DNA of 64,000 nt from Lytechinus pictus (lineage: Eukaryota): positions 4,652,001-4,716,000 of the forward strand of contig NC_087250.1 in NCBI RefSeq assembly GCF_037042905.1, given 5' to 3'. This document shows positions 2,975 to 55,681 of the stretch, one piece after another. Numbering within the stretch: position 1 is the stretch's first letter; every line of letters starts with the position of its first letter. Under the pieces are notes generated by a model. The model worked only from the letters and a program-made list of their open reading frames with translations, was not told the DNA's origin and ran no database searches. A program made the translations under genes and the position numbers.

Positions 2975-3004
2975 CAAGAAGACATTCTAATATTGTTTGT
3001 ATAG

Positions 3005-3148
3005 GTGCTTGATTGCCATTGTAGAGTACATCATGCCAATGGATTACTACAGCAAGACATTGATTGGATCACAGACCGACCAGAGAGTCTTCCGAGAGCT
3101 TCTGGCAGAGAAAATCCCAAGACTCCACGCCCATTTCGAAGAGTACTC
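3005..3148 (+). CDS. TBC1D2B: TBC1D2B-like exon
   Basis: tag|CLIAIVEYIMPMDYYSKTLIGSQTDQRVFRELLAEKIPRLHAHFEEY|gtacgt; phase 2 to 2. Confidence 0.9.
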
Positions 3149-4974
3149 GTACGTATTGGTCAAAGATCGACCACCCTCCCCCCCCCCCCCTCCTCCTGTT
3201 ACAAACTTGATCATTTTCCTCAAGTCTTTCTGACAGAGTCTGATTTTATAGACTAAGTTAGGGCAGTCTTTGTGTTATGGTAATCAGGGGGGGGGGAGGT
3301 GTTTCATGAAAGTTTTTTTTGTCTTTTGTATTTATATGTTTTATTGGGTCAACACAGACCAAGTATAAACAAAAATAACAAATCAAACATAATTAAACTA
3401 TTTCATGAAAGTTGTCAGCACTGACTAAATCACAGCGCTGACAATTTCAGTGAAATCCTTGGTTTTGATTGGCTGACAGGCTCTGTCCCCTGACTGTTTC
3501 TATGGTAACTGTCATGGAACGTTCCCCAGGGCCCCCGTCTTACAAAGAGTTAAGATTGATCTGATCATCTTAAACTATAGGGAAATCCAACATTGTCATA
3601 ATTTTTTTTCTCCAGGAAATTTGCATGCTGTCCCTTGTAAACAAAGAGAAGCACACTAAATTTTCAAGAAAACAATGAATGTATGATTCTACATCACATC
3701 TAGAAAACATTTTGAATAGTTGTACAATGTAGTTGATTGGTTCAATCGTAACTCTTTATAAGACGGGGCCCTACTCTGTAATGAAGCGAACTATTCCAAA
3801 GTGGAACTACATGAAACAAGAACAGTAATTCTCTAAATTTCAGATACTTTCTTTCGGGATTTTAATTTTCAATACTGAATTCTGAAAAATCATTCATATA
3901 CTCTTAGAAATTATGTCGAGTAATCATTATTTGTTTTGTTCATTTTAATTTGTTATTTCAGGATAGATTTGTCATTGGTCACTTTCTTGGGGGATATTAA
4001 TTTTCTATACTGAATACTGAAAAGCAATTGATATACTCTTACATGTAGACATTATGTTGAGTAAAACATTATTTGTTTTATTCTGTTTAATATGTTATTT
4101 TAGGATAGATATGTATTTGGTCACTTTATTGCATGATTTTATTTTTCAATACTGAAAAATCATTGATATACTCTTAGAAATTATGTTACATAAAACATTA
4201 TTTGTTTTATTATTTTCAATTTGTTAGTTCAGGATAGATCTGTCATTGGTCACTTTCTTGGGGGATTTTAATTTTCAGTACTGGAATTTGTTTTATTATA
4301 TTTACTTTATTATTTCAGGATAGATTTGTCATTGGTCACTTTCTTGGGGGATATTAATTTTCTATATTGAATACTGAAAAGCCATTGATATACTCTTACA
4401 TGAAGAAATTATGTTGAGTAAAACATTATTTGTTTTATTCTGTTTAATACATATATGTTGTTTCAGGATGGATCTGTCTTTGGTCACTTTCTTTCTGGAC
4501 TTTATTTTTCAATACTGAATACTGAAAAATTATTGATAAAATCTTATAAGTATGTTTAGTAAACATTATTTTTTAATTCTTTTTAATTTGTTATTATAGG
4601 ATAGATCTGTTATTCGTCATTTTTGGGGGGGATTTTAATTTAAATACTGAATACTGAAAAATCATTCACATACTCTTAGAAATTATGTTGAGTGAAACAT
4701 TATTTGTTTTATAATTTTTAATTTGTAATTTCAGGATAGACTTGTCATTGGTCACTTTCTTGGGGGATTTTAATTTTCAATACTGAAAAAAAAACTTGAT
4801 ATTCTCTGAGAAATTGTGTTGAGTGAAACATTATTTGTTTTATTATTTTTAATTTGTAATTTCAGGATAGACCTGTCATTGGTCACTTTCTTGGGGATTT
4901 TGATTTTCAGTAATGAATACTGAAAAAAAATCATTGACATACTCTTAGAAATTATGTTGAGTGAAATATTATTT

Positions 4975-5141
4975 AGAAAGTCAAAAAGGGGCCTAAGCTT
5001 TCGATCCTACATGTAGCAGAATCTTCGTCGGAGGCGAAGATTCTGCTAGGATCGAAAGCTTAGGCCCCTTTTTGACTTTCTAATTTACTCCATTGGCTCT
5101 CTTTTATTAGATAAGCAGTTTTCAGCAGCTTCTTTTTGCCA
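4975..5141. mobile_element. Penelope-like inverted terminal-repeat fragment with degenerate hammerhead
   Basis: Hairpin at about 4975-5083; tgaaatattattt duplicated on both sides; minus strand reads ccgacga..gaaagctta. Confidence 0.55.
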
Positions 5142-6328
5142 TTGAAATATTATTTGTCTTATTATTATTAATTTGTAATTTCAGGATTTACCTGTCATTG
5201 GTCACTTTCTTGGGGGATTTTAATTTTTAATACTGAAAAAAAAATTGATATTCTCTGAGAAATTATGTTAAGTAAAACATTATTTGTTTTATTATTTTCA
5301 ATTTGTTAGTTCAGGATAAATCTGTCATTGGTCACTTTCTTGGGGGATTTTAATTTTCAGTACTGGAATTTGATTTATTATATTTACTTTATTATTTCAG
5401 GATAGATTTGTCATTGGTCACTTTCTTGGGGGATATTAATTTTCTATACTGAATACTGAAAAGCCATTGATATACTCTTACATGACGAAATTATGTTGAG
5501 TTAAACATTATTTGTTTTATTCTGTTTAATACATAAATGTTATTTCAGGATGGATCTGTCTTTGGTCACTTTCTTTTTTTCATTTTATTTTTCAATACTG
5601 AATACTGAAAAATTATTGATAAAATCTTATAAGTATGTTTAGTAAACATTATTTTGTATTCTTTTTAATTTGTTATTATAGGATAGATCTGTTATTCGTC
5701 ATTTTCTTGGGGGATTTTAATTTAAATACTGAATACTGAAAAATCATTCACATACTCTTAGAAATTATGTTGAGTGAAACATTATTTGTTTTATTATTTT
5801 TAAATTGTAATTTCTGGATAGACCTGTCATTGGTCACTTTCTTGGGGATTTTGATTTTCAATAATGAATACTGAAAAAAAACTTGATATTCTCTGAGAAA
5901 TTGTGTTGAGTAAAACATTATTTGTTTTATCATTTTTAATTTGTAATTTCAGGATAGACCTGTCATTGGTCACTTTCTTGGGGATTTTGATTTTCAATAA
6001 TGAATACTGAAAAAAATCATTGACATACTCTTAGAAATTATTTTAAGTAAAACATTATTTGTTTTATTCTTTTCAATTTGTTATTTCAGGATAGACCCGT
6101 CATTGGTCACTTTCTTGGGGGATTTTAATTTTCAATACTGAATAAAAAATTGATATTCTCTGAGAAATTGTGTTGAGTAAAACATTATTTGTTTTATTAT
6201 TTTTAATTTGTAATTTCAGGATAGACCTGTCATTGGTCACTCTCTTGGGGGATTTTAATTTTCAATACTGAAAAAAAACTTGATATTCTCTGAGAAATTG
6301 TGTTGAGTAAAACATTATTTGTTTTATT

Positions 6329-7274
6329 GTCTCACCTGCATAGCAGAGTGAGACTATAGGCGCCGCTTTTCCGACGGCGGCGGCGGCGTCAACACCAAAT
6401 CTTAACCTGAGGTTAAGTTTTTGAAATGACAGCATAACTTACAAAGTATATGGACCTAGTTCATGAAACTTGGCCATAAGGTTAATCAAGTATTACTGAA
6501 CATCCTGCCTGAGTTTCATGTCACATGACCAAGGTCAAAGGTCATTTAGGGTCAATGAACTTAGACCATGTTGGGGGAATCAACATCAAAATCTTAACCT
6601 AAGGTTAAGTTTTTGAAATGTCATCATAACTTAGAAAATATATGGACCTAGTTCATGAAACTTATACATAAGGTTAATCAAGTATCACTGAACATCCTGC
6701 ATGAGTTTCACGTCACATGACCAAGGTCAAAGGTCATTTAGGGTCAATGAACTTTGGCCGAATTGGGGGTATCTCTTGAATTACCATCATAACTTTGAAA
6801 GTTTATGGATCTGATTCATGAAACTTGGACATAATAGTAATCAAGTATTACTGAACATCCTGTGCAAGTTTCAGGTCACATGATCAAGGTCAAAGGTCAT
6901 TTAGGGTCAATGAACTTTGGCCAAATTGGGGTATTTGTTGAATTACAGCCATAAATTTGAAAGTGTGTTGGTCTAGTTCATAAAACTTGGACATAATAGT
7001 AATCAAGTATCACTGAACATCCTGTGCGAGTTTCAGGTCACATGATCAAGGTCAAAGGTCATGTAAGGTCAAAGAACTTTGGCCACGTTGGGGGTATTTG
7101 TTGAATTGCCATCATATCTCTATAAGTGTATTGGTCTAGTTCATAAAACGTGGAAATAAGAGTAACCAAGTATCACTGAACATCTTGTGCGAGTTATAGT
7201 AGTTTTCAAAATCAGCACTGCTGCTATATTGAATCGCGTGATGCAGGTGAGACGGCCAGAGGCATTCCACTTGT
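6329..7274 (+). mobile_element. Helentron-associated (HINE/DINE/Tsp-like) non-autonomous element, copy 1
   Basis: 5' subTIR gtctcacctgc with nearby IR gtgagac; 3' gcaggtgagac; internal 160-190 bp repeats; sits in a T-rich site without TSD. Confidence 0.75.
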
Positions 7275-7672
7275 TATTTTTTATTTGTAATTTCAGGATA
7301 GACCTGTCATTGGTCACTTTCTTGGGGATTTTGATTTTCAATAATGAATACTGAAAAAAATCATTGACATACTCTTAGAAATTATTTTAAGTAAAACATT
7401 ATTTGTTTTATTCTTTTCAATTTGTTATTTCAGGATAGACCCGTCATTGGTCACTTTCTTGGGGGATTTTAATTTTCAATACTGAATAAAAAATTGATAT
7501 TCTCTGAGAAATTGTGTTGAGTAAAACATTATTTGTTTTATTATTTTTAATTTGTAATTTCAGGATAGACCTGTCATTGGTCACTCTCTTGGGGGATTTT
7601 AATTTTCAATACTGAAAAAAAACTTGATATTCTCTGAGAAATTGTGTTGAGTAAAACATTATTTGTTTTATT

Positions 7673-8618
7673 GTCTCACCTGCATAGCAGAGTGAGACTA
7701 TAGGCGCCGCTTTTCCGACGGCGGCGGCGGCGTCAACACCAAATCTTAACCTGAGGTTAAGTTTTTGAAATGACAGCATAACTTACAAAGTATATGGACC
7801 TAGTTCATGAAACTTGGCCATAAGGTTAATCAAGTATTACTGAACATCCTGCCTGAGTTTCATGTCACATGACCAAGGTCAAAGGTCATTTAGGGTCAAT
7901 GAACTTAGACCATGTTGGGGGAATCAACATCAAAATCTTAACCTAAGGTTAAGTTTTTGAAATGTCATCATAACTTAGAAAATATATGGACCTAGTTCAT
8001 GAAACTTATACATAAGGTTAATCAAGTATCACTGAACATCCTGCATGAGTTTCACGTCACATGACCAAGGTCAAAGGTCATTTAGGGTCAATGAACTTTG
8101 GCCGAATTGGGGGTATCTCTTGAATTACCATCATAACTTTGAAAGTTTATGGATCTGATTCATGAAACTTGGACATAATAGTAATCAAGTATTACTGAAC
8201 ATCCTGTGCAAGTTTCAGGTCACATGATCAAGGTCAAAGGTCATTTAGGGTCAATGAACTTTGGCCAAATTGGGGTATTTGTTGAATTACAGCCATAAAT
8301 TTGAAAGTGTGTTGGTCTAGTTCATAAAACTTGGACATAATAGTAATCAAGTATCACTGAACATCCTGTGCGAGTTTCAGGTCACATGATCAAGGTCAAA
8401 GGTCATGTAAGGTCAAAGAACTTTGGCCACGTTGGGGGTATTTGTTGAATTGCCATCATATCTCTATAAGTGTATTGGTCTAGTTCATAAAACGTGGAAA
8501 TAAGAGTAACCAAGTATCACTGAACATCTTGTGCGAGTTATAGTAGTTTTCAAAATCAGCACTGCTGCTATATTGAATCGCGTGATGCAGGTGAGACGGC
8601 CAGAGGCATTCCACTTGT
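7673..8618 (+). mobile_element. Helentron-associated element, copy 2
   Basis: Apparently identical to copy 1, offset 1344. Confidence 0.75.
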
Positions 8619-9018
8619 TATTTTTTATTTGTAATTTCAGGATAGACCTGTCATTGGTCACTTTCTTGGGGATTTTGATTTTCAATAATGAATACTGAAA
8701 AAAATCATTGACATACTCTTAGAAATTATTTTAAGTAAAACATTATTTGTTTTATTCTTTTCAATTTGTTATTTCAGGATAGACCCGTCATTGGTCACTT
8801 TCTTGGGGGATTTTAATTTTCAATACTGAATAAAAAATTGATATTCTCTGAGAAATTGTGTTGAGTAAAACATTATTTGTTTTATTATTTTTAATTTGTA
8901 ATTTCAGGATAGACCTGTCATTGGTCACTCTCTCTTGGGGGATTTTAATTTTCAATACTGAAAAAAAACTTGATATTCTCTGAGAAATTGTGTTGAGTAA
9001 AACATTATTTGTTTTATT

Positions 9019-9964
9019 GTCTCACCTGCATAGCAGAGTGAGACTATAGGCGCCGCTTTTCCGACGGCGGCGGCGGCGTCAACACCAAATCTTAACCTGA
9101 GGTTAAGTTTTTGAAATGACAGCATAACTTACAAAGTATATGGACCTAGTTCATGAAACTTGGCCATAAGGTTAATCAAGTATTACTGAACATCCTGCCT
9201 GAGTTTCATGTCACATGACCAAGGTCAAAGGTCATTTAGGGTCAATGAACTTAGACCATGTTGGGGGAATCAACATCAAAATCTTAACCTAAGGTTAAGT
9301 TTTTGAAATGTCATCATAACTTAGAAAATATATGGACCTAGTTCATGAAACTTATACATAAGGTTAATCAAGTATCACTGAACATCCTGCATGAGTTTCA
9401 CGTCACATGACCAAGGTCAAAGGTCATTTAGGGTCAATGAACTTTGGCCGAATTGGGGGTATCTCTTGAATTACCATCATAACTTTGAAAGTTTATGGAT
9501 CTGATTCATGAAACTTGGACATAATAGTAATCAAGTATTACTGAACATCCTGTGCAAGTTTCAGGTCACATGATCAAGGTCAAAGGTCATTTAGGGTCAA
9601 TGAACTTTGGCCAAATTGGGGTATTTGTTGAATTACAGCCATAAATTTGAAAGTGTGTTGGTCTAGTTCATAAAACTTGGACATAATAGTAATCAAGTAT
9701 CACTGAACATCCTGTGCGAGTTTCAGGTCACATGATCAAGGTCAAAGGTCATGTAAGGTCAAAGAACTTTGGCCACGTTGGGGGTATTTGTTGAATTGCC
9801 ATCATATCTCTATAAGTGTATTGGTCTAGTTCATAAAACGTGGAAATAAGAGTAACCAAGTATCACTGAACATCTTGTGCGAGTTATAGTAGTTTTCAAA
9901 ATCAGCACTGCTGCTATATTGAATCGCGTGATGCAGGTGAGACGGCCAGAGGCATTCCACTTGT
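9019..9964 (+). mobile_element. Helentron-associated element, copy 3
   Basis: Apparently identical to copy 2, offset 1346. Confidence 0.75.
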
Positions 9965-10477
9965 TATTTTTTATTTGTAATTTCAGGATAGACCTGTCAT
10001 TGGTCACTTTCTTGGGGATTTTGATTTTCAATAATGAATACTGAAAAAAATCATTGACATACTCTTAGAAATTATTTTAAGTAAAACATTATTTGTTTTA
10101 TTCTTTTCAATTTGTTATTTCAGGATAGACCCGTCATTGGTCACTTTCTTGGGGATTTTAATTTTCAATACTGAATAAAAAATTGATATTCTCTGAGAAA
10201 TTATGTTAAGTAAAACATTATTTGTTTTATTATTTTTTATTTGTAATTTCAGGATAGACCTGTCATTGGTCACTTTCTTGGGGATTTTGATTTTCAATAA
10301 TGAATACTGAAAAAAAATCATTGACATACTCTTAGAAATTATGTTAAGTAAAACATTATTTGTTCTATTCTTTTCAATTTGTTATTTCAGGATAGACCCG
10401 TCATTGGTCACTTTCTTGGGGGATTTTAATTTTCAATACTGAATAAAAAATTGATATTCTCTGAGAAATTATGTTAA

Positions 10478-11063
10478 AGGAGAATGAAACTCTTGGAGCA
10501 AGTTAGCTTTTGTGAAAGCAAAAAAATCAAAGAATAAGATCAACAAAAGTTTGAGTAAAATAGGACGAGCAATAGAAGAGTTATGAGCATTTGAATGTCG
10601 AGATCACTAATGCTATGGAGATTCTCCCATTGGCAATGCGACCAAGATCTACGATGTCACAGATGAACAACTCTCCCCTTTTGGACACTGAAAATATACC
10701 CCAAAACATCTCTTTTTTCTCATTCTAATCATATGACAAACGATTCATCAATTATATAATGTTGTGAAACCTCTGCACTTGTCCTCTCATATAAAGAGAA
10801 CACCTCACCTTGTGATAGACTCTATAAAAGTGAGAATATAAGTGAAATAAGTACTAAAGTAATGAGGGAGTTGTACGTGTGTGACATCACAGATCTTGGT
10901 CGCATTGCCAATGGGAAGATCTACATGGCATTAGTGATCTCAATATTCAAATGCTCATAACTTTCTTATTATTCATTCAATCTTCCTCAAACTTTCAACA
11001 ATATGTTTCATTGATTTTTCTCTTTGATATGGATTCAGCTGGTTTCAAGGGTTTCATTCTCCT
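10478..11063. mobile_element. TTAA-TSD MITE with AGG termini (Kolobok-like)
   Basis: ttaa|aggagaatgaaac...gtttcattctcct|ttaa; the empty site atgttaagta is seen in other array units. Confidence 0.85.
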
Positions 11064-11098
11064 TTAAGTAAAACATTATTTGTTTTACGTTATTTTAG

Positions 11099-11345
11099 GA
11101 TAGATCTGTCATTGGTCACTTTCAACTGGTTTGTCACCTGTTTCTGTGATAACATCCCTGCCGAGACCATGCTACGGATCTGGGACACCTTCCTGTCGGA
11201 AGGGAACAAGGTCCTCTTCCGCTACTCGCTGGCAGCGTTCAAGTTCTTTGAAGAGGAGCTGCTGAAACAGAACGACTATCTGAGGATCTTTGCCTTCCTG
11301 CGTCGAATGCCGGAGATGTTGACGGATGTCCAGAGACTAACCCAG
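11099..11345 (+). CDS. TBC1D2B: TBC1D2B-like exon
   Basis: tag|IDLSLVTFNWFVTCFCDNIPAETMLRIWDTFLSEGNKVLFRY...RLTQ|gtatcc; contains the TBC RIWD motif. Confidence 0.92.
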
Positions 11346-11357
11346 GTATCCAAATGT

Positions 11358-34861: not shown

Positions 34862-34905
34862 TTAAATAAAATTAATGTCACCGCACCAATCTGCTCAACT
34901 TTTTT

Positions 34906-35600
34906 TTTTTTTTTTTGGAAAATTATTTAATAACAGAGTTAAACAATATAATTTCAAATTGCTGCATCGGATTTTGCCGTATAAAGAGAATTTAGTTCGA
35001 TGGAATATCACATCAGACATGACTTGTAACCATTGTAAACAAATTGAAACTCTAGATCATGTTTTGTTGCATTGTCCACATGTGAATTTATTTTGGCAAA
35101 AACTACGGTATTTCATTAAGATCCAGTTTAATGTGAATATTCAGATTAATGAGAAAACATTATTGATTGGCCACGATGTTGAAAATGAAAACATGGCTTT
35201 TCTTAATGTAATTTTGGTTTTCGCACAATATACGATTTATAGAGTCTATATGTTGGCTCAGTTCACTTCAAAAAAATTCAGCTATTTTTCTATGTTGTCA
35301 GATTTCAAGAGAGAATTAGTCATTAATTTAAGATTTCTTGAAAAGAGTAATAAGATAAAACTAACAGAAAAACAGTACAACGAAATCAAAAGCCTGTGAA
35401 ATGTGAAACTAATTGTATATATTGTTTGTGTTTGTTTATTGATTTCAATGTAAAAGAGTAACATGATAAAAATATCAGAAAAACAGTATATTGAAATCAA
35501 AAGGTTGTGAAATATGAAACTAATTGTATATATTGTATGTGTTTGATTATTGATTTTAATGTAATAAATACCTCTGATGAGGACAAAAAAAAAAAAAAAA
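34906..35600 (+). mobile_element. 5'-truncated L1/Tx1-type LINE (C-terminal zinc-binding region), polyA and TSD
   Basis: FKLLHRILP...CNHCKQIETLDHVLLHCPHVNLFW; polyA 35585-35600; aatctgctcaactttt on both sides. Confidence 0.85.
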
Positions 35601-49772: not shown

Positions 49773-52027
49773 CTGTAGCAAAGAAAACAAAATGAAACGT
49801 TTTTTTTTATAGAGCTGAAAATAAAACTAACGGCAATAATAATTACAATAATACTAATAATAACAGCAATAATGATTATAATAATTAAAATAATAATAAC
49901 GATAATAATAATAGCAATAATGAGTATAATGATTATAATTTTAACTCTAATAATAAAAGCAAAGATGATAATAATAATAATGTGCTTATATATACAGTGC
50001 TATTCAAGTCTCTAAGTGTTAACCAGAAATTATAATAGTGAGAATAATAAAAGTAATAATAATAATAGTAGCGATAATGATTATAATACTACTATTACTA
50101 CTACTACTAATAATAATAATAATAATAGCAAATTTTTATAAAGCGCTTTTCCCAGAATGGCCCAAAGCGCGTTACAGCATATTATTACCCCGGTCATTGG
50201 ATTCATTTCAATCAAGCACGAAAAGTGCACAATTTCCACTCCCTGGGGAGCATTCCTTGCATTCGTCGCAGCCACATTATGGCGCTGGCAAAATCAAACG
50301 TACAATATCTTTCGCATCCTACCGGGTACCCATTTAGCACCTGGGTCGAGAGTGGCAAAGTGTGGATTAACGCCTTGCCAAAGGACGCTAGACCGCGGTG
50401 GGATTCGAACACACGACCCTCTGTTTACAAGGCGAGAGTCAGAACCACTACACCACGGCTCTTCCACTAATAATGTGCTTACATACAGTACTCGACAATA
50501 ATTTTGCATAATTACCCTGGCTTGAGCAGGTTTAGCAGAGCAGCTGTTACGCGCACTTCATTTCAAGGAATCAATTCCTGCCATGTACCATTTTACCTCA
50601 ACTGGGGGCCGTTTCATAAATCTGTTCGTAAGTTAAGAGCGACTTTAAGAACGACTGGTGAACCTTTCTTACGTGCTGAATAATCGTCAATGAACATTTA
50701 ATTGTGAATATCATTTACCACAAGAAATTGATCACTAGCCGTTCTTAAAGAGGAATCCAGCCTTGGCCATAAAATGTTGTGTTGGGAAGGAGAAAAATAA
50801 ATTAAACAGAATGGTGAAAGTTTGAAAGAAATCAGACAAGCAATAAGAAAGTAAATAGCTGCTTTAAAATTGAGATCACTAATACAACGTAGATTTCAAA
50901 TTGGCAACTGGGTAAGTAAATTATGACAAGGGGCAAGGACAACTTTCCCATAGGCCATGTACTTTATTATGAGGGATTTGTGGTTTTCTCCTAAGTACCC
51001 ATTCCCCTGGGACAGTAATTTAAATATAACCCAGGTAGTATATTATTTCATGTCCTCATGAATGAAAAATATAATTTGAAATAAAACTTTTGGGAAAAAT
51101 GACATTTTAGCCATAATGTATTGGAGTACATGGAAGAGTAGTCCTTGCCTTACATCACTATGACATCCCATATGCGGCCACTTTGAAGTCTCCATGGGTA
51201 TAGTGATTACCAATATTTACAACTTTTAAAAATTCATAACTTTCTTGTTGTTTGTCCAATATTGTTCAAACTTTCACCTATCAACTTGTCTAATTTTTCT
51301 TTTCCTTATAAAAACAAGTTTTTATTTGGGTTGGATTCTCCTTTAAAGTTGCTCTTAACTTACGAACAGCTTAATAAAACACCCACCTGGGTTGAGTGCA
51401 TGCAGGCTGTGCTGCACAGGGTGAATCAATTTCTTGCGAAGGAAATAAGACGCCATGGCTGGGATTCGAACCCAGGATCCTCTGTTTCAAAGACCGATGA
51501 CTAATTCACTGGGCCTCGATTATACATGAGTTCTTTTACCAACCCTTCGTCCATAAATCCATATAAAGTGTTCTTTATCCGAAACGCACTTTTCTGTTTT
51601 GTGCCCTAGGGTATACCCAGTTCAATGTGCCTTTTGAATACCGCATAACATTCCACAAAATATTTTCTCGTTGTATGGAAACAATGAAAGCTATTGTCAT
51701 GAATCAATGACTATCTTTATGGTTATAGATGCCTCGATTGTATGTCTTTTCAATGATTTATTGGCCTACCCTTATTGTGTTGTATTCATGCATGAAAACC
51801 AGTATTCTTTCTGCTCCGAAAATGTAGAATTAGTTGGTATTTTCTAATTAAAGGTAAATTTCAGTTTTGGGAACGATCTCAAAATGACTTTTTACAGAAT
51901 TTAATATAATGATCACCAAAGTGTCTGTTTGTATGAATAAAAAATATGTGCCAAAGGATTCTGGAAGAAATTGTGTAATTGCTGAGAAATAAGCAAAATA
52001 AGCGCGGATTCGGTCACTGATCCGTCG

Positions 52028-53259
52028 CACAGTGGGCCAGAATGAGTTGAAAGTGCGCCAAAATTATATTCCGTGTTAGATTTTTACTTTAACATGTTGA
52101 CTATGGGTAATTTTGGGCGTAGAATCGACTGAACATAATCTAAAGCCGATTTGACGTCACCTTGATACCAAATTTTGATTGGCTACTTAAAACATATCTG
52201 TGAAGACAAATTACGCTAGACAATGTGTAGTATATAAATTTTGTGTTATGTGCTACTTTAAGATTGACCAGAGTGAATGTTGGTTTAGGCTTCTCACATG
52301 CCTAAAAAGTGTGTATGAGATCCTGAAAATAATTTTATAGCATCAAAATGATCATTAATTAGATTTATAAAAAGAAAAAATAAAATCTGAAAAATATTAA
52401 CCGTGCTTTATGAAGCTGTGTTTACTTGTGTAAAATGCAGTGTATTTAGCACCAAGAATGTATCACTATGAGGAGGGTTTTTGGCTGAAATTATTCTACA
52501 AGTAAGTTTTAACTCTGGAAGAGTTGTGAGTATAGCCCTTATTTGCGTTAGCAACCTTTATTTTGTTTACTTTATTTTGCCCGGAATTCATGTCATTTTC
52601 ATGGAATGGAAGGGGAATCGTCCTCGCCCTGCAAAAGCGAGCGGCAATTAATGTACACCCATACGGTGCGCTACGATGACTGCGCGGTATAAAATTACCG
52701 TTTTTGAACAGGTTTTGGGGGTGTTGTGTCAAGTAAAATTGGCTCTCACATGGCAACGGGCAAAAACGGGCAGCTGAATTTGGTATCGTCTTAAAGCTTA
52801 GACATCAGAAAAAATGATGATGATAAAAATTAGACGGAAATCCACGGAAATCCAAACGTTTCTAATGTAAATGCAAAAAACATGGATTTTCAGCCTATTT
52901 CGAGGAATAATCATACTATAAACCTCCTGAAAGGTGTCTTTTATCTACTTTGAGCCCTTTCACACACAAAAAAGAATATATCAGGATTATGTTGGAGCCA
53001 TTTCAGATTCCTGCATGAAAAACCTCCTGGGAAATTGTCTGTTTTTAACTAGGTTGTCATATACGCGACATTTCGCAAAATGTCACATTTTACGATTTGA
53101 GGTTGGAAATTAACAACCTTTATGCAAATTTCGGAATGAAATATTTTGCTGAAGTATTCTTCAAAGTGTTGTCTTTCAGCTGGGCATAACAAAAAATAAA
53201 AATCAGAAATTGCCCAAAATGACTTTTGGCGCACTTTTGTTTCGCCCCGGCCCACTGTG
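52028..53259. mobile_element. Non-autonomous Transib/RAG-like transposon
   Basis: cgtcg|CACAGTGggcc...ggccCACTGTG|cgtcg; bipartite TIR; nested in an older element at about 51848-53480. Confidence 0.85.
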
Positions 53260-55681
53260 CGTCGGGTCTTTATTCCAGCAAGAATGATACACTGTCCCAC
53301 GTGTGCCTATCTGTGTTCAGTGTGATCGTTTTTTTTAGCTAGATATTATGATTTCACAAAGTTCAGTTTATGTAACTGTACAAGATCTAGATCCACGATG
53401 ATATATCAATACTTTACCTTGGTTTTACAGACTTTCTCATGAAATCAATGTTTTACTGCAACTACGTTCATTTAGCTTTGAATGTAAGACATGTCTGCAA
53501 TAAAGTAATTCAGTATCTATAATGAATTTCCCTTTAAAAGTGCCATGAAATTCATTTGCAAAGTACTTTTTTTTCAATTTGATTAATGTGAGGATTGACA
53601 TTAAAAAAAAATAAATTCTTATGTTAATTGAATTTAAAAGGTATTGCAACTAACGAATTCTACTGCAATTCCTGAGGATATTAGCTTTATGGACCGTGAA
53701 TACATTCGAAGTAGTCATGACATTCATTGGCGGAAATAATATTTCATATCATTATGATATCCTTTGATTAAATCCAAGCGTAGACATAAACCACGGAAAG
53801 ATGTTATCACATTGTTTGAGAGAATATGTTCTTTCAGAGCCCAATAAAAGACTTTCGTTCATGACAGAATTTCTCCATCAATTGTGATTTTTTATTTATT
53901 TATTTATTTTTTGGTTTAGGTTTAAAGTATTTCTCATTCAAAATGTCATTCCATGTTTGTACGAGCGTAAGTCGTCGTGCATAGTTAAAGGAGAATGAAA
54001 CCTTTGGAACAAAATAGCTTGTGTGAAAACAGAAAATTGAAAGAAACAGATCAACGAAAGTCTGAGTAAAATCGAACAAATAATGAGAAAGATATGAGCA
54101 TTTGAAATTTTCGATCACTAATGCTATGGATATCCTCAAATTGGCAATGCGACAAAGATGTGTGATGTCACTTGTGAACAATTACTCTCCCCATTACTTT
54201 AGTATGTATTTCACTTAAATTGCCTTTTTTATCACATCTATCAGTAGATCAGTGTTCTTTCTATTGGAGGGCATGTAATACAGATTTTTGAAAAATACAT
54301 CATGGATAAAAAGTTTGTATCACCATTTAAGAAAAAGCAAAGAGACATTTTGAGGGTATTTTATGGTCCATCAAAGGGAAAGTTGTTCACATGTGACATC
54401 ACACATCCTTGTCACATTGCCAATGGGAGGATCTCCATAGCATTAGTGATTGCTATATTCAAATGCTCATAAATTTCTCATTATTTGTCCGATTTTTCTC
54501 AAACTTTCTTTGTTCTTATTCTTCGATTTTTCTGTTTCGACACACCCCTACTTGTTCCAAAGGTTTCATTCCCCTTTGAGATATGGGCCTATTTCGAAAT
54601 TATGGGAAGGGTCAGAGGGGAAGGGCTTATGCGATTTGAACAGGGGCGGCGATCTTGGGGGGCTGGGGGCACAGTACCCCCCCCCCCCACACTTTTTGAA
54701 GCACTGAAAAAGTGCCCTTTTAACGCAAGAAAAATGACCCCTTGCGAACGTGTTCTGTGCCCCTTTCACCTGAGAAGGACCCGTTTTATGTCTTCTTGTA
54801 AGTGCCCTTTCTCGCATCAGTGCCCCTTTTTACCGCACAAAAGTGCGGCAAAGAAGTCCTGTGCCCCTTTCACCTGAGGAGGACTTGTTTTGTGTGTCAA
54901 CGAGTGCTACTTTGCCTTCTCATATAGGTGCCCGTTCTTTATAATCAGATAAGTTGTCCTGAAAAACACATTTTCCGTGCCCGATGTGCGCCCGGTTTCT
55001 CTATTTAGCGCCGTTCTGCTCCCTTCTGCAAGTGCATAATAAATGAAAAAACTTGTAAAAAATAATCCTACGTGCCTTAAGTATCATGAGTCATGTGAAT
55101 GGGGTAGATGGGTGGGGCAGGGGGTAGTTGCCACCCCCCCCCCCGAAATTTTGAAAACTCACATTTTTTTTACTGCAGATTTTCACAAAATTCACCAAAA
55201 GTATACAAAAAATCATTCAATTTCACTTAACAAAATGCGAAAGCACCTATATGATAAACTCGGTCGCTTCACTCCCTCGGTTTTAAGCTTTTTTTTCCAA
55301 ATGGTTTACACGTGCTGCCCCCAGCGAAATTGTTCTGCATACGGCCATGTTTAATATAGCGCCCTTTTTGAAAGAAACGGTGCCCTTTTTTCCCTGTGTG
55401 CCCCCCCACTTTCAAATTCGCTCCGCCGCCCTTGGATTTGAACTTGAATTGAACCAAAGATGCGAAATGGCAAGTTGATCTGAAGGAAAAGAAAAATTTG
55501 GATAAAATCGAACGAGGCAATAAGACTCTCCCACATCTAGCGGCAAAAAAATTGAATACAACAGACATTCAATTCAGTTTGTACTGTGTAGGATTCCTCG
55601 CATCGTTCCATGAAGAATATTCATGAGTTCTTTTTTCTTTTTTTTTGGCCTTGTTTTGTTTAGTTTTGTTTGGTTGCTTAC

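Follow-up and report, generated by a model that had tools for sequence, protein, structure and literature searches.

What is a DNA segment that carries CACAGTG, the heptamer of the V(D)J recombination signal sequence (RSS), at both of its ends, and which enzyme could have mobilised it? The question is raised by a 64,000-nucleotide stretch of contig NC_087250.1 (the window; position 1 is its first letter), in which a first-pass annotation had noticed an element of Transib or RAG type with CACAGTG at both ends and a perfect duplication of 5 bp at the target site (TSD), CGTCG. Direct reading bears out both features: window 52028-53259 is a 1232-bp element with inverted ends of 36 nt, and CGTCG is duplicated on both sides. 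We consider it very probable that this element is a non-autonomous, non-coding DNA transposon of the Transib superfamily. [quoted passage not shown] The window copy landed at a CGTCG inside a copy of an abundant repeat of ~410 bp, called the host repeat below. The locus has the following parts.

51840-52027, no strand assigned: left half of the high-copy host repeat (~410 bp), from BLAST limits, copy scoring and contig depth
52023-52027, no strand assigned: left TSD copy, CGTCG, read directly; two uninterrupted host-repeat copies (L050, L051) carry a single CGTCG there
52028-52038, plus strand: left outer box CACAGTGGGCC, the RSS-like heptamer CACAGTG followed by an invariant GGCC, identical in families A and B and in Transib-N1_SP
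52039-52049, plus strand: left 11-nt variable spacer AGAATGAGTTG, unlike the spacers of the right end, of both family B ends and of Transib-N1_SP
52050-52063, plus strand: left inner box AAAGTGCGCCAAAA, whose CCAAAA lies 23 nt past the heptamer, a nonamer-like position
52064-53223, no strand assigned: internal non-coding body, from frame, Pfam, Rfam and tRNA scans
53224-53237, minus strand: right inner box, the reverse complement of AAAGTGCGCCAAAA, from direct reading and pattern search
53238-53248, minus strand: right 11-nt variable spacer, GGGGCGAAACA on the minus strand
53249-53259, minus strand: right outer box, the reverse complement of CACAGTGGGCC, from direct reading and pattern search
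53260-53264, no strand assigned: right TSD copy, CGTCG, from direct reading and host-repeat comparison
53260-53482, no strand assigned: right half of the same host repeat, from flank matches in L050 and L051

Read directly, the left side runs ...tgatc, CGTCG, CACAGTGGGCC, AGAATGAGTTG, AAAGTGCGCCAAAA, TTATATTCC, and the right side runs ...GAC, TTTTGGCGCACTTT, TGTTTCGCCCC, GGCCCACTGTG, CGTCG, ggtc. An inverted-repeat search of the window returned the ends as two arms (52019-52063 and 53224-53268) of 45 nt each that are 78% complementary. A pattern search of the 64-kb window found exactly two occurrences of each box, one at either end of the element, and one additional match to the inner box, with 2 mismatches, lies at 54840. 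The ends had been described as bipartite, with 11 variable nucleotides between two boxes, and this description holds beyond the window copy: when A, B and Transib-N1_SP are compared, positions 1-11 and 23-36 are constant and positions 12-22 vary. The body has no sign of a gene. Its longest stop-to-stop frame is 102 aa, the open reading frames (ORFs) of at least 60 aa that overlap the element have no Pfam match, and the element has neither an Rfam match (E up to 0.1) nor a tRNA. A 21-bp tandem repeat is the sole tandem repeat in 51000-54200.

We then counted the element and its ends genome-wide, in an assembly of 811.7 Mb and 368 contigs. With the full-length element as the query there were 559 first-look candidates, 40 of which were scored and yielded 42 matches of 90-100% identity, nearly all full length. 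The pattern of outer box, any 11 nucleotides and inner box, with up to 2 mismatches allowed, matched 457 + 463 = 920 times, and the reversed control matched 0 + 0 times; the two-box end pattern is therefore beyond chance. Family B, ~2.0 kb in length and with the spacers AGAATGAACCC and AGGAGAGAGCA, accounts for 127 and 133 of the ends and thus for roughly 130 copies, and the remaining ends, ~660, correspond to the roughly 330 copies of family A. The two families share the end boxes and differ in spacers and bodies: they do not align outside the 36-nt ends, and beyond position 36 all four end types differ. Neither family has a long reading frame or any coding capacity.

The duplication proved to be a property of the family. 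A perfect 5-bp duplication, always of the form CGNCG, flanks 10 of the 11 simple A copies inspected with their flanks, and in the remaining one (L003) the heptamer and flank of the right end are lost; the annotation had named copies without 5-bp duplications as one outcome that would speak against its reading. Genome-wide, CGNCG directly precedes 563 of the 745 exact ends, compared with a chance expectation of about 1 in 256 by our own arithmetic. In addition, the 5-bp flanks are identical in 31 of 32 neighbouring plus/minus end pairs, judged by eye among the first 100 matches listed; in the remaining pair, a tandem one, it is the outer flanks that agree.

The host repeat allows the insertion to be viewed against its unoccupied site. 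It is highly abundant, with 1542 first-look candidates, scored copies that are 95-98% identical, and a very high summed contig depth in four public runs; it contains no tRNA and has no Rfam match. In L050 and L051, where the host repeat is uninterrupted, the matches to the left and the right flank overlap by exactly 5 bp, and uninterrupted copies read ...ggtcacttc, one CGTCG, then ggtctttattcc... This single CGTCG is the clearest proof that the 5 bp flanking the window copy are a true duplication. The joined form (joint 52018 to 53260) is also carried by contigs of the four public runs. Because both flanks lie in a very high-copy repeat, these joints are paralogous empty sites and are uninformative on polymorphism at the locus itself. 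No listed contig piece from the four runs spans the element, and the contigs yielded no allelic empty site.

The annotation's suggestion of recent mobility is supported only in part. The nearest relative of the window copy is 98.7% identical to it, on which basis the insertion is young, though not demonstrably active. Pairwise identity among the 11 A copies ranges from 91.4 to 99.3%, the youngest pair seen being the 99.3% one; these copies were picked as the best matches to the window copy, so that a young subgroup is over-represented among them.

Published descriptions of Transib allowed us to compare the family with the superfamily feature by feature. Section 8 of Kapitonov and Jurka 2005 (PMC1131882) states that, among superfamilies of eukaryotic DNA transposons, Transib alone has 5-bp duplications, which is the length found in family A. 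The same paper describes a terminus of 38 bp, made up of a heptamer, a 23-bp spacer and an A-rich nonamer, together with GC-rich targets (PMC1131882), and its section 9 gives the consensus heptamer as CACAATG. In our element the CAC-initiated heptamer is CACAGTG at both ends and in the exact-end matches genome-wide, and a terminus of ~38 bp, with a heptamer, a spacer of ~23 bp and an A-rich block, is found at both ends. CCAAAA occupies positions 31-36 of each end, inside the conserved inner box, and the box's initial 8 nt belong to what the published consensus counts as spacer. The targets, CGNCG at 563 of 745 exact ends, are GC-rich as well.

The comparison with published ends that the annotation had called for gave the most specific result. 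For Transib-N1_SP, the ends CACAGTGGGCC, AGGGAGGAACC, AAAGTGCGCCAAAA are printed with the flanks CGGCG or CGACG (PMC1131882, Fig. S4g), and according to Kapitonov and Jurka 2005 the family is deposited in Repbase (PMC1131882). The printed ends and our element share identical CACAGTGGGCC and AAAGTGCGCCAAAA, the 11-nt gap, 5-bp CGNCG duplications and the absence of a transposase. They differ in the spacer, since the printed consensus has AGGGAGGAACC at both ends and the window element has two unlike spacers; in length, the printed copies being ~0.56-0.91 kb and the window element 1.23 kb; and in host, the window element's being apparently another species. This is a comparison of ends only, as the body of Transib-N1_SP is not printed. 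Of the spacers found in this genome, 12 have A at position 5, and none of these is the Transib-N1_SP spacer. Since Transib-N1_SP, as printed, has both boxes and the CGNCG target in common with family A, the latter is a sibling of that family, in a lineage already in print for sea urchin. The boxes are unlike the ends of ProtoRAG, which start with CACTATG and carry an A-rich block.

From this anatomy we infer which enzyme acts and by what chemistry. Both ends would be bound by a Transib transposase that is supplied in trans and nicks at the CAC border, and the element would be released by the nick-hairpin route described for the Transib of Helicoverpa zea; the 3' ends would then be joined to the target with a 5-bp stagger and a strong preference for CGNCG. 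The H. zea element, Hztransib, resembles ours in its heptamer-like CAC terminus and is described as producing, in vitro, duplications that are always 5 bp and slightly GC-enriched, by a nick-hairpin mechanism (PMC4840297). It differs in being an autonomous insect element whose ends are said to have little or no similarity to a nonamer, a comparison made by description (PMC4840297). The kind of partner to be expected is illustrated by the autonomous Transib1_SP of S. purpuratus, reported as 4132 bp long with a CGGCG duplication and a 676-aa transposase in two exons (PMC1131882). It shares with our element the 5-bp duplication, the form of the target and a sea urchin host, but, at 4132 bp, codes for a transposase, and no counterpart of it was located in this genome.

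Several observations weigh against this assignment. The link to a Transib transposase rests on the anatomy of ends, duplication and target and on the published family, and not on an element-enzyme pair in this genome. The genome search with both ends that the annotation had proposed returned no autonomous partner among the end pairs opened, and neither did the pattern and protein searches, in which no Transib transposase query was used, so that the blank weighs little as a sign of absence. In the end pairs that we opened for being long or odd, and at the solo ends, there were nested retroelements or no frame, and no transposase. Among A copies, one (L026) carries an insert like a long interspersed nuclear element, and two more (L028, L029) carry inserts. 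Among B copies, L027 has an insert with reverse-transcriptase-like and GIY-YIG-like frames, the 6.1-kb L047 has no frame >125 aa, the 3.5-kb L048 encodes no transposase, and the 4.4-kb L052 holds a reverse-transcriptase fragment. Three solo ends (L044-046) lie in a segmental duplication, and an end with box 1 only (L053) adjoins no long frame. Searches for ends with another spacer, inner or subterminal sequence gave 6, 12, 30 and 8 matches, almost all of them mutated A or B ends. Finally, an exact CGNCG is missing at 182 of the 745 exact ends, about a quarter.

Pfam RAG1 matched the genome 17 times at E up to 0.001 and 22 times when the limit was relaxed to E 10; every match is of RAG1L type. 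A phmmer search with a RAG1L core returned 486 matches, the best 150 of which are all at E 7.5e-18 or better. Three low-identity phmmer matches (P0093, P0106, P0129) have amphioxus RAG1L (6b40) as their best PDB match, and no Transib chain in the PDB matched them at E up to 0.001.

We considered whether the two ends are functionally asymmetric, the right one being 12-type and the left one 23-type, so that they would obey a 12/23-like rule. The annotation had reported nonamer-like motifs at such distances, and its spacings were counted correctly: at the right end ACAAAAGTG lies 12 nt and CCAAAAGTC 23 nt past the heptamer, and at the left end CCAAAATTA lies at 23 nt. The motif at 12 nt is absent from the left end, and in family B one end has GCAAAAGTG at that place and the other CCCAAAGTG; 12/23-like ends are, moreover, reported for some Transib families in the legend to Fig. 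4C of PMC1131882. However, in ACAAAAGTG 3 nt of the variable spacer are followed by the six bases with which the inner box begins. The sole conserved inner block, AAAGTGCGCCAAAA, spans positions 23-36 whichever end is considered, in A, in B and in Transib-N1_SP, with no second distance of ~12 bp. Because the inner box is equidistant from both ends, the 12/23 reading is unsupported. The difference between left and right is confined to the 11-nt spacer, which varies between families. In Transib-N1_SP, as printed, the spacer is the same at both ends (PMC1131882), and symmetric ends are stated for most Transib families (PMC8289069). Functional asymmetry is thus improbable; judged from the sequence, the end geometry is symmetric, 23-type at both ends, and no 12/23 asymmetry is seen. 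The likeness to a V(D)J RSS consists of the exact heptamer CACAGTG and of CCAAAA 23 nt downstream, which matches positions 2-6 of the consensus nonamer ACAAAAACC (PMC8289069). In contrast to an RSS, both ends of the window element are 23-type and do not form a 12/23 pair, the conserved block AAAGTGCGCCAAAA is not a nonamer, and the sequence is a mobile element rather than a recombination site.

The annotation had left open whether the mobiliser is Transib or RAG1L/RAG2L, and it is conceivable that the family is cut or moved by a RAG1L-RAG2L pair of the host, of RAGL-B type, either by cross-mobilisation or by excision as a 'guardian of the genome'. The genome does hold such genes. At G000:C182:12000-21999 (L039), RAG1L (4397-6232, plus strand) and a RAG2L-like gene (7943-8815, minus strand) face each other with open frames. 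The RAG1 core frame is 612 aa long and matches Pfam RAG1 at E 5.9e-72, the tail of RAG1L is a C-C-GH-C zinc knuckle, and sequence resembling kelch and PHD domains is found in the opposing frame. Another contig, C233, carries an identical copy of RAG1L, and a second open RAG1L of 624 aa (E 4.0e-65) lies at G000:C4:15674907-15676589 (L038). No Transib transposase was located, no search with a Transib transposase query having been made. Purple sea urchin RAG1L together with mouse RAG2 is described as able to cut at the CACAGTG heptamers of RSSs (PMC4840297), and PMC9885083 and PMC8355894 state that it is not known which genomic sequences echinoid RAGL proteins target.

The ends themselves argue the other way. 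No CACAGTGGGCC-type end was found in the 10 kb fetched around the L039 pair or around the other RAG1-like loci fetched, so that the pair, as far as it was covered, is not flanked by the ends of the window element. RAGL-B ends are reported to have an A-rich block directly after the heptamer, which the amphioxus enzyme needs for cleavage (PMC10462144, PMC7204232), whereas positions 8-11 in A, B and Transib-N1_SP are an invariant GGCC. Like the window element, ProtoRAG and RAGL-B transposons and their non-autonomous derivatives have bipartite ends, a heptamer that begins with CAC and 5-bp duplications biased towards GC, as described in PMC7204232 and PMC8289069. Yet they encode or derive from a RAG1L-RAG2L pair, and ProtoRAG ends start with CACTATG, have the A-rich block adjoining the heptamer and show an asymmetric 27/31-bp spacing (PMC8289069), in contrast to the GGCC and the symmetry seen here. 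Functional reports point the same way: in the experiments described in PMC4840297, no recombination was obtained when RAG1L of the purple sea urchin was combined with the RAG2L of that species, and the account of echinoderms in PMC10462144 knows of no transposition-competent RAGL element there and describes Transibs with intact ends as common. The same ends, finally, are already published as Transib (PMC1131882). Mobilisation by RAG1L-RAG2L is therefore distinctly unlikely; although no enzyme was found between these ends, their anatomy favours a Transib transposase over RAG1L/RAG2L, as far as sequence can indicate. That the element is no Transib at all, but an inverted repeat arisen by chance or part of a different cut-and-paste superfamily, has next to no probability and is already effectively refuted: the want of a transposase tied to the element in this analysis speaks for it, and against it stand 920 end matches with none in the reversed control, 5-bp duplications in 10 of 11 copies and empty sites with a single CGTCG, a duplication length given for Transib alone among eukaryotic DNA transposon superfamilies (PMC1131882 section 8), and end boxes identical to those of a published Transib family (PMC1131882).

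The RAG1-like sequences of this genome include at least 12 decayed fragments (on C2, C5, C9, C10 and C13), among them a tandem series at C9:18152611-18173215. Near such fragments we observed words that begin with CACAGTGG and share AAGTTAATA ~15 nt further in, in L036 near 3818 (G000:C9) and in L041 near 943 (G000:C2). These words could be remnants of the ends of another element, or chance.

Some copies of the two Transib-type families are arranged in pairs. At G000:C6:2950781-2954235 (L042) two A copies stand head to tail in the order CGACG-A-CGACG-A-CGACG; one copy had inserted at precisely the 5-bp duplication that flanks its neighbour, an outcome that the CGNCG preference predicts. In another tandem A pair (G000:C2:39658985-39661450) the inner flanks are unlike those of their own partners and the outer flanks are identical (CGCCG); the pair may be a composite that its outer ends mobilised, or it may have arisen by recombination. 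Four pairs of B ends lie ~6.1-6.2 kb apart (G000:C4:18342549-18348620, C8:28732660-28738794, C8:38026588-38032720 and C19:12618723-12624923). The one that was opened, L047, has a non-coding insert, and if all four share this insert, a composite B element would itself have been mobilised. Several further end pairs stand 8-9 kb apart.

As for the genes around the insertion, the annotation had placed it in an intron of an IL-1-like gene, for which we found no confirmation. None of the 253 stop-to-stop ORFs of at least 60 aa in the window matches Pfam IL1, a genome-wide IL1 search gave no match either, a blank that is in itself uninformative, and what directly surrounds the insertion is a further repeat. 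The Pfam scan of the 253 ORFs returned only two RabGAP-TBC exons (2991-3230 and 11028-11357, plus strand), which belong to a gene like TBC1 domain family member 2B (TBC1D2B), and a zf-RVT frame at 34866-35396. The second TBC1D2B exon is 93% identical to that of Lytechinus variegatus, 85% to Diadema setosum and 70% to Asterias rubens, which supports a sea urchin as the host; against S. purpuratus a TBC1D2B exon shows 88% identity over only 37% of the query. Three minus-strand frames of equal length, 77 aa each, recur at ~1345-bp spacing (7144-7374, 8488-8718 and 9834-10064), which suggests a long-period tandem repeat in 7144-10064.

The element by itself is of little importance, being a well-behaved representative of a transposon type already known, with end boxes that are in print for another sea urchin. 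The strong CGNCG target preference, measured genome-wide, is modestly useful, and the comparison of A, B and Transib-N1_SP supplies a ready-made map of fixed and free positions for mutagenesis of Transib ends. A bolder proposal, and to us a very improbable one, is that Transib-type ends are the natural substrate of a domesticated sea urchin RAG1L-RAG2L, by which they would be cross-mobilised or excised as a genome defence. If this were true, it would explain how copies up to 99.3% identical occur with no canonical Transib transposase located, and it would supply the long-sought genomic target of the echinoid RAGL proteins. With hundreds of RSS-like ends beside intact RAG1L and RAG2L genes, this is a convenient genome for testing echinoid RAGL on Transib ends.

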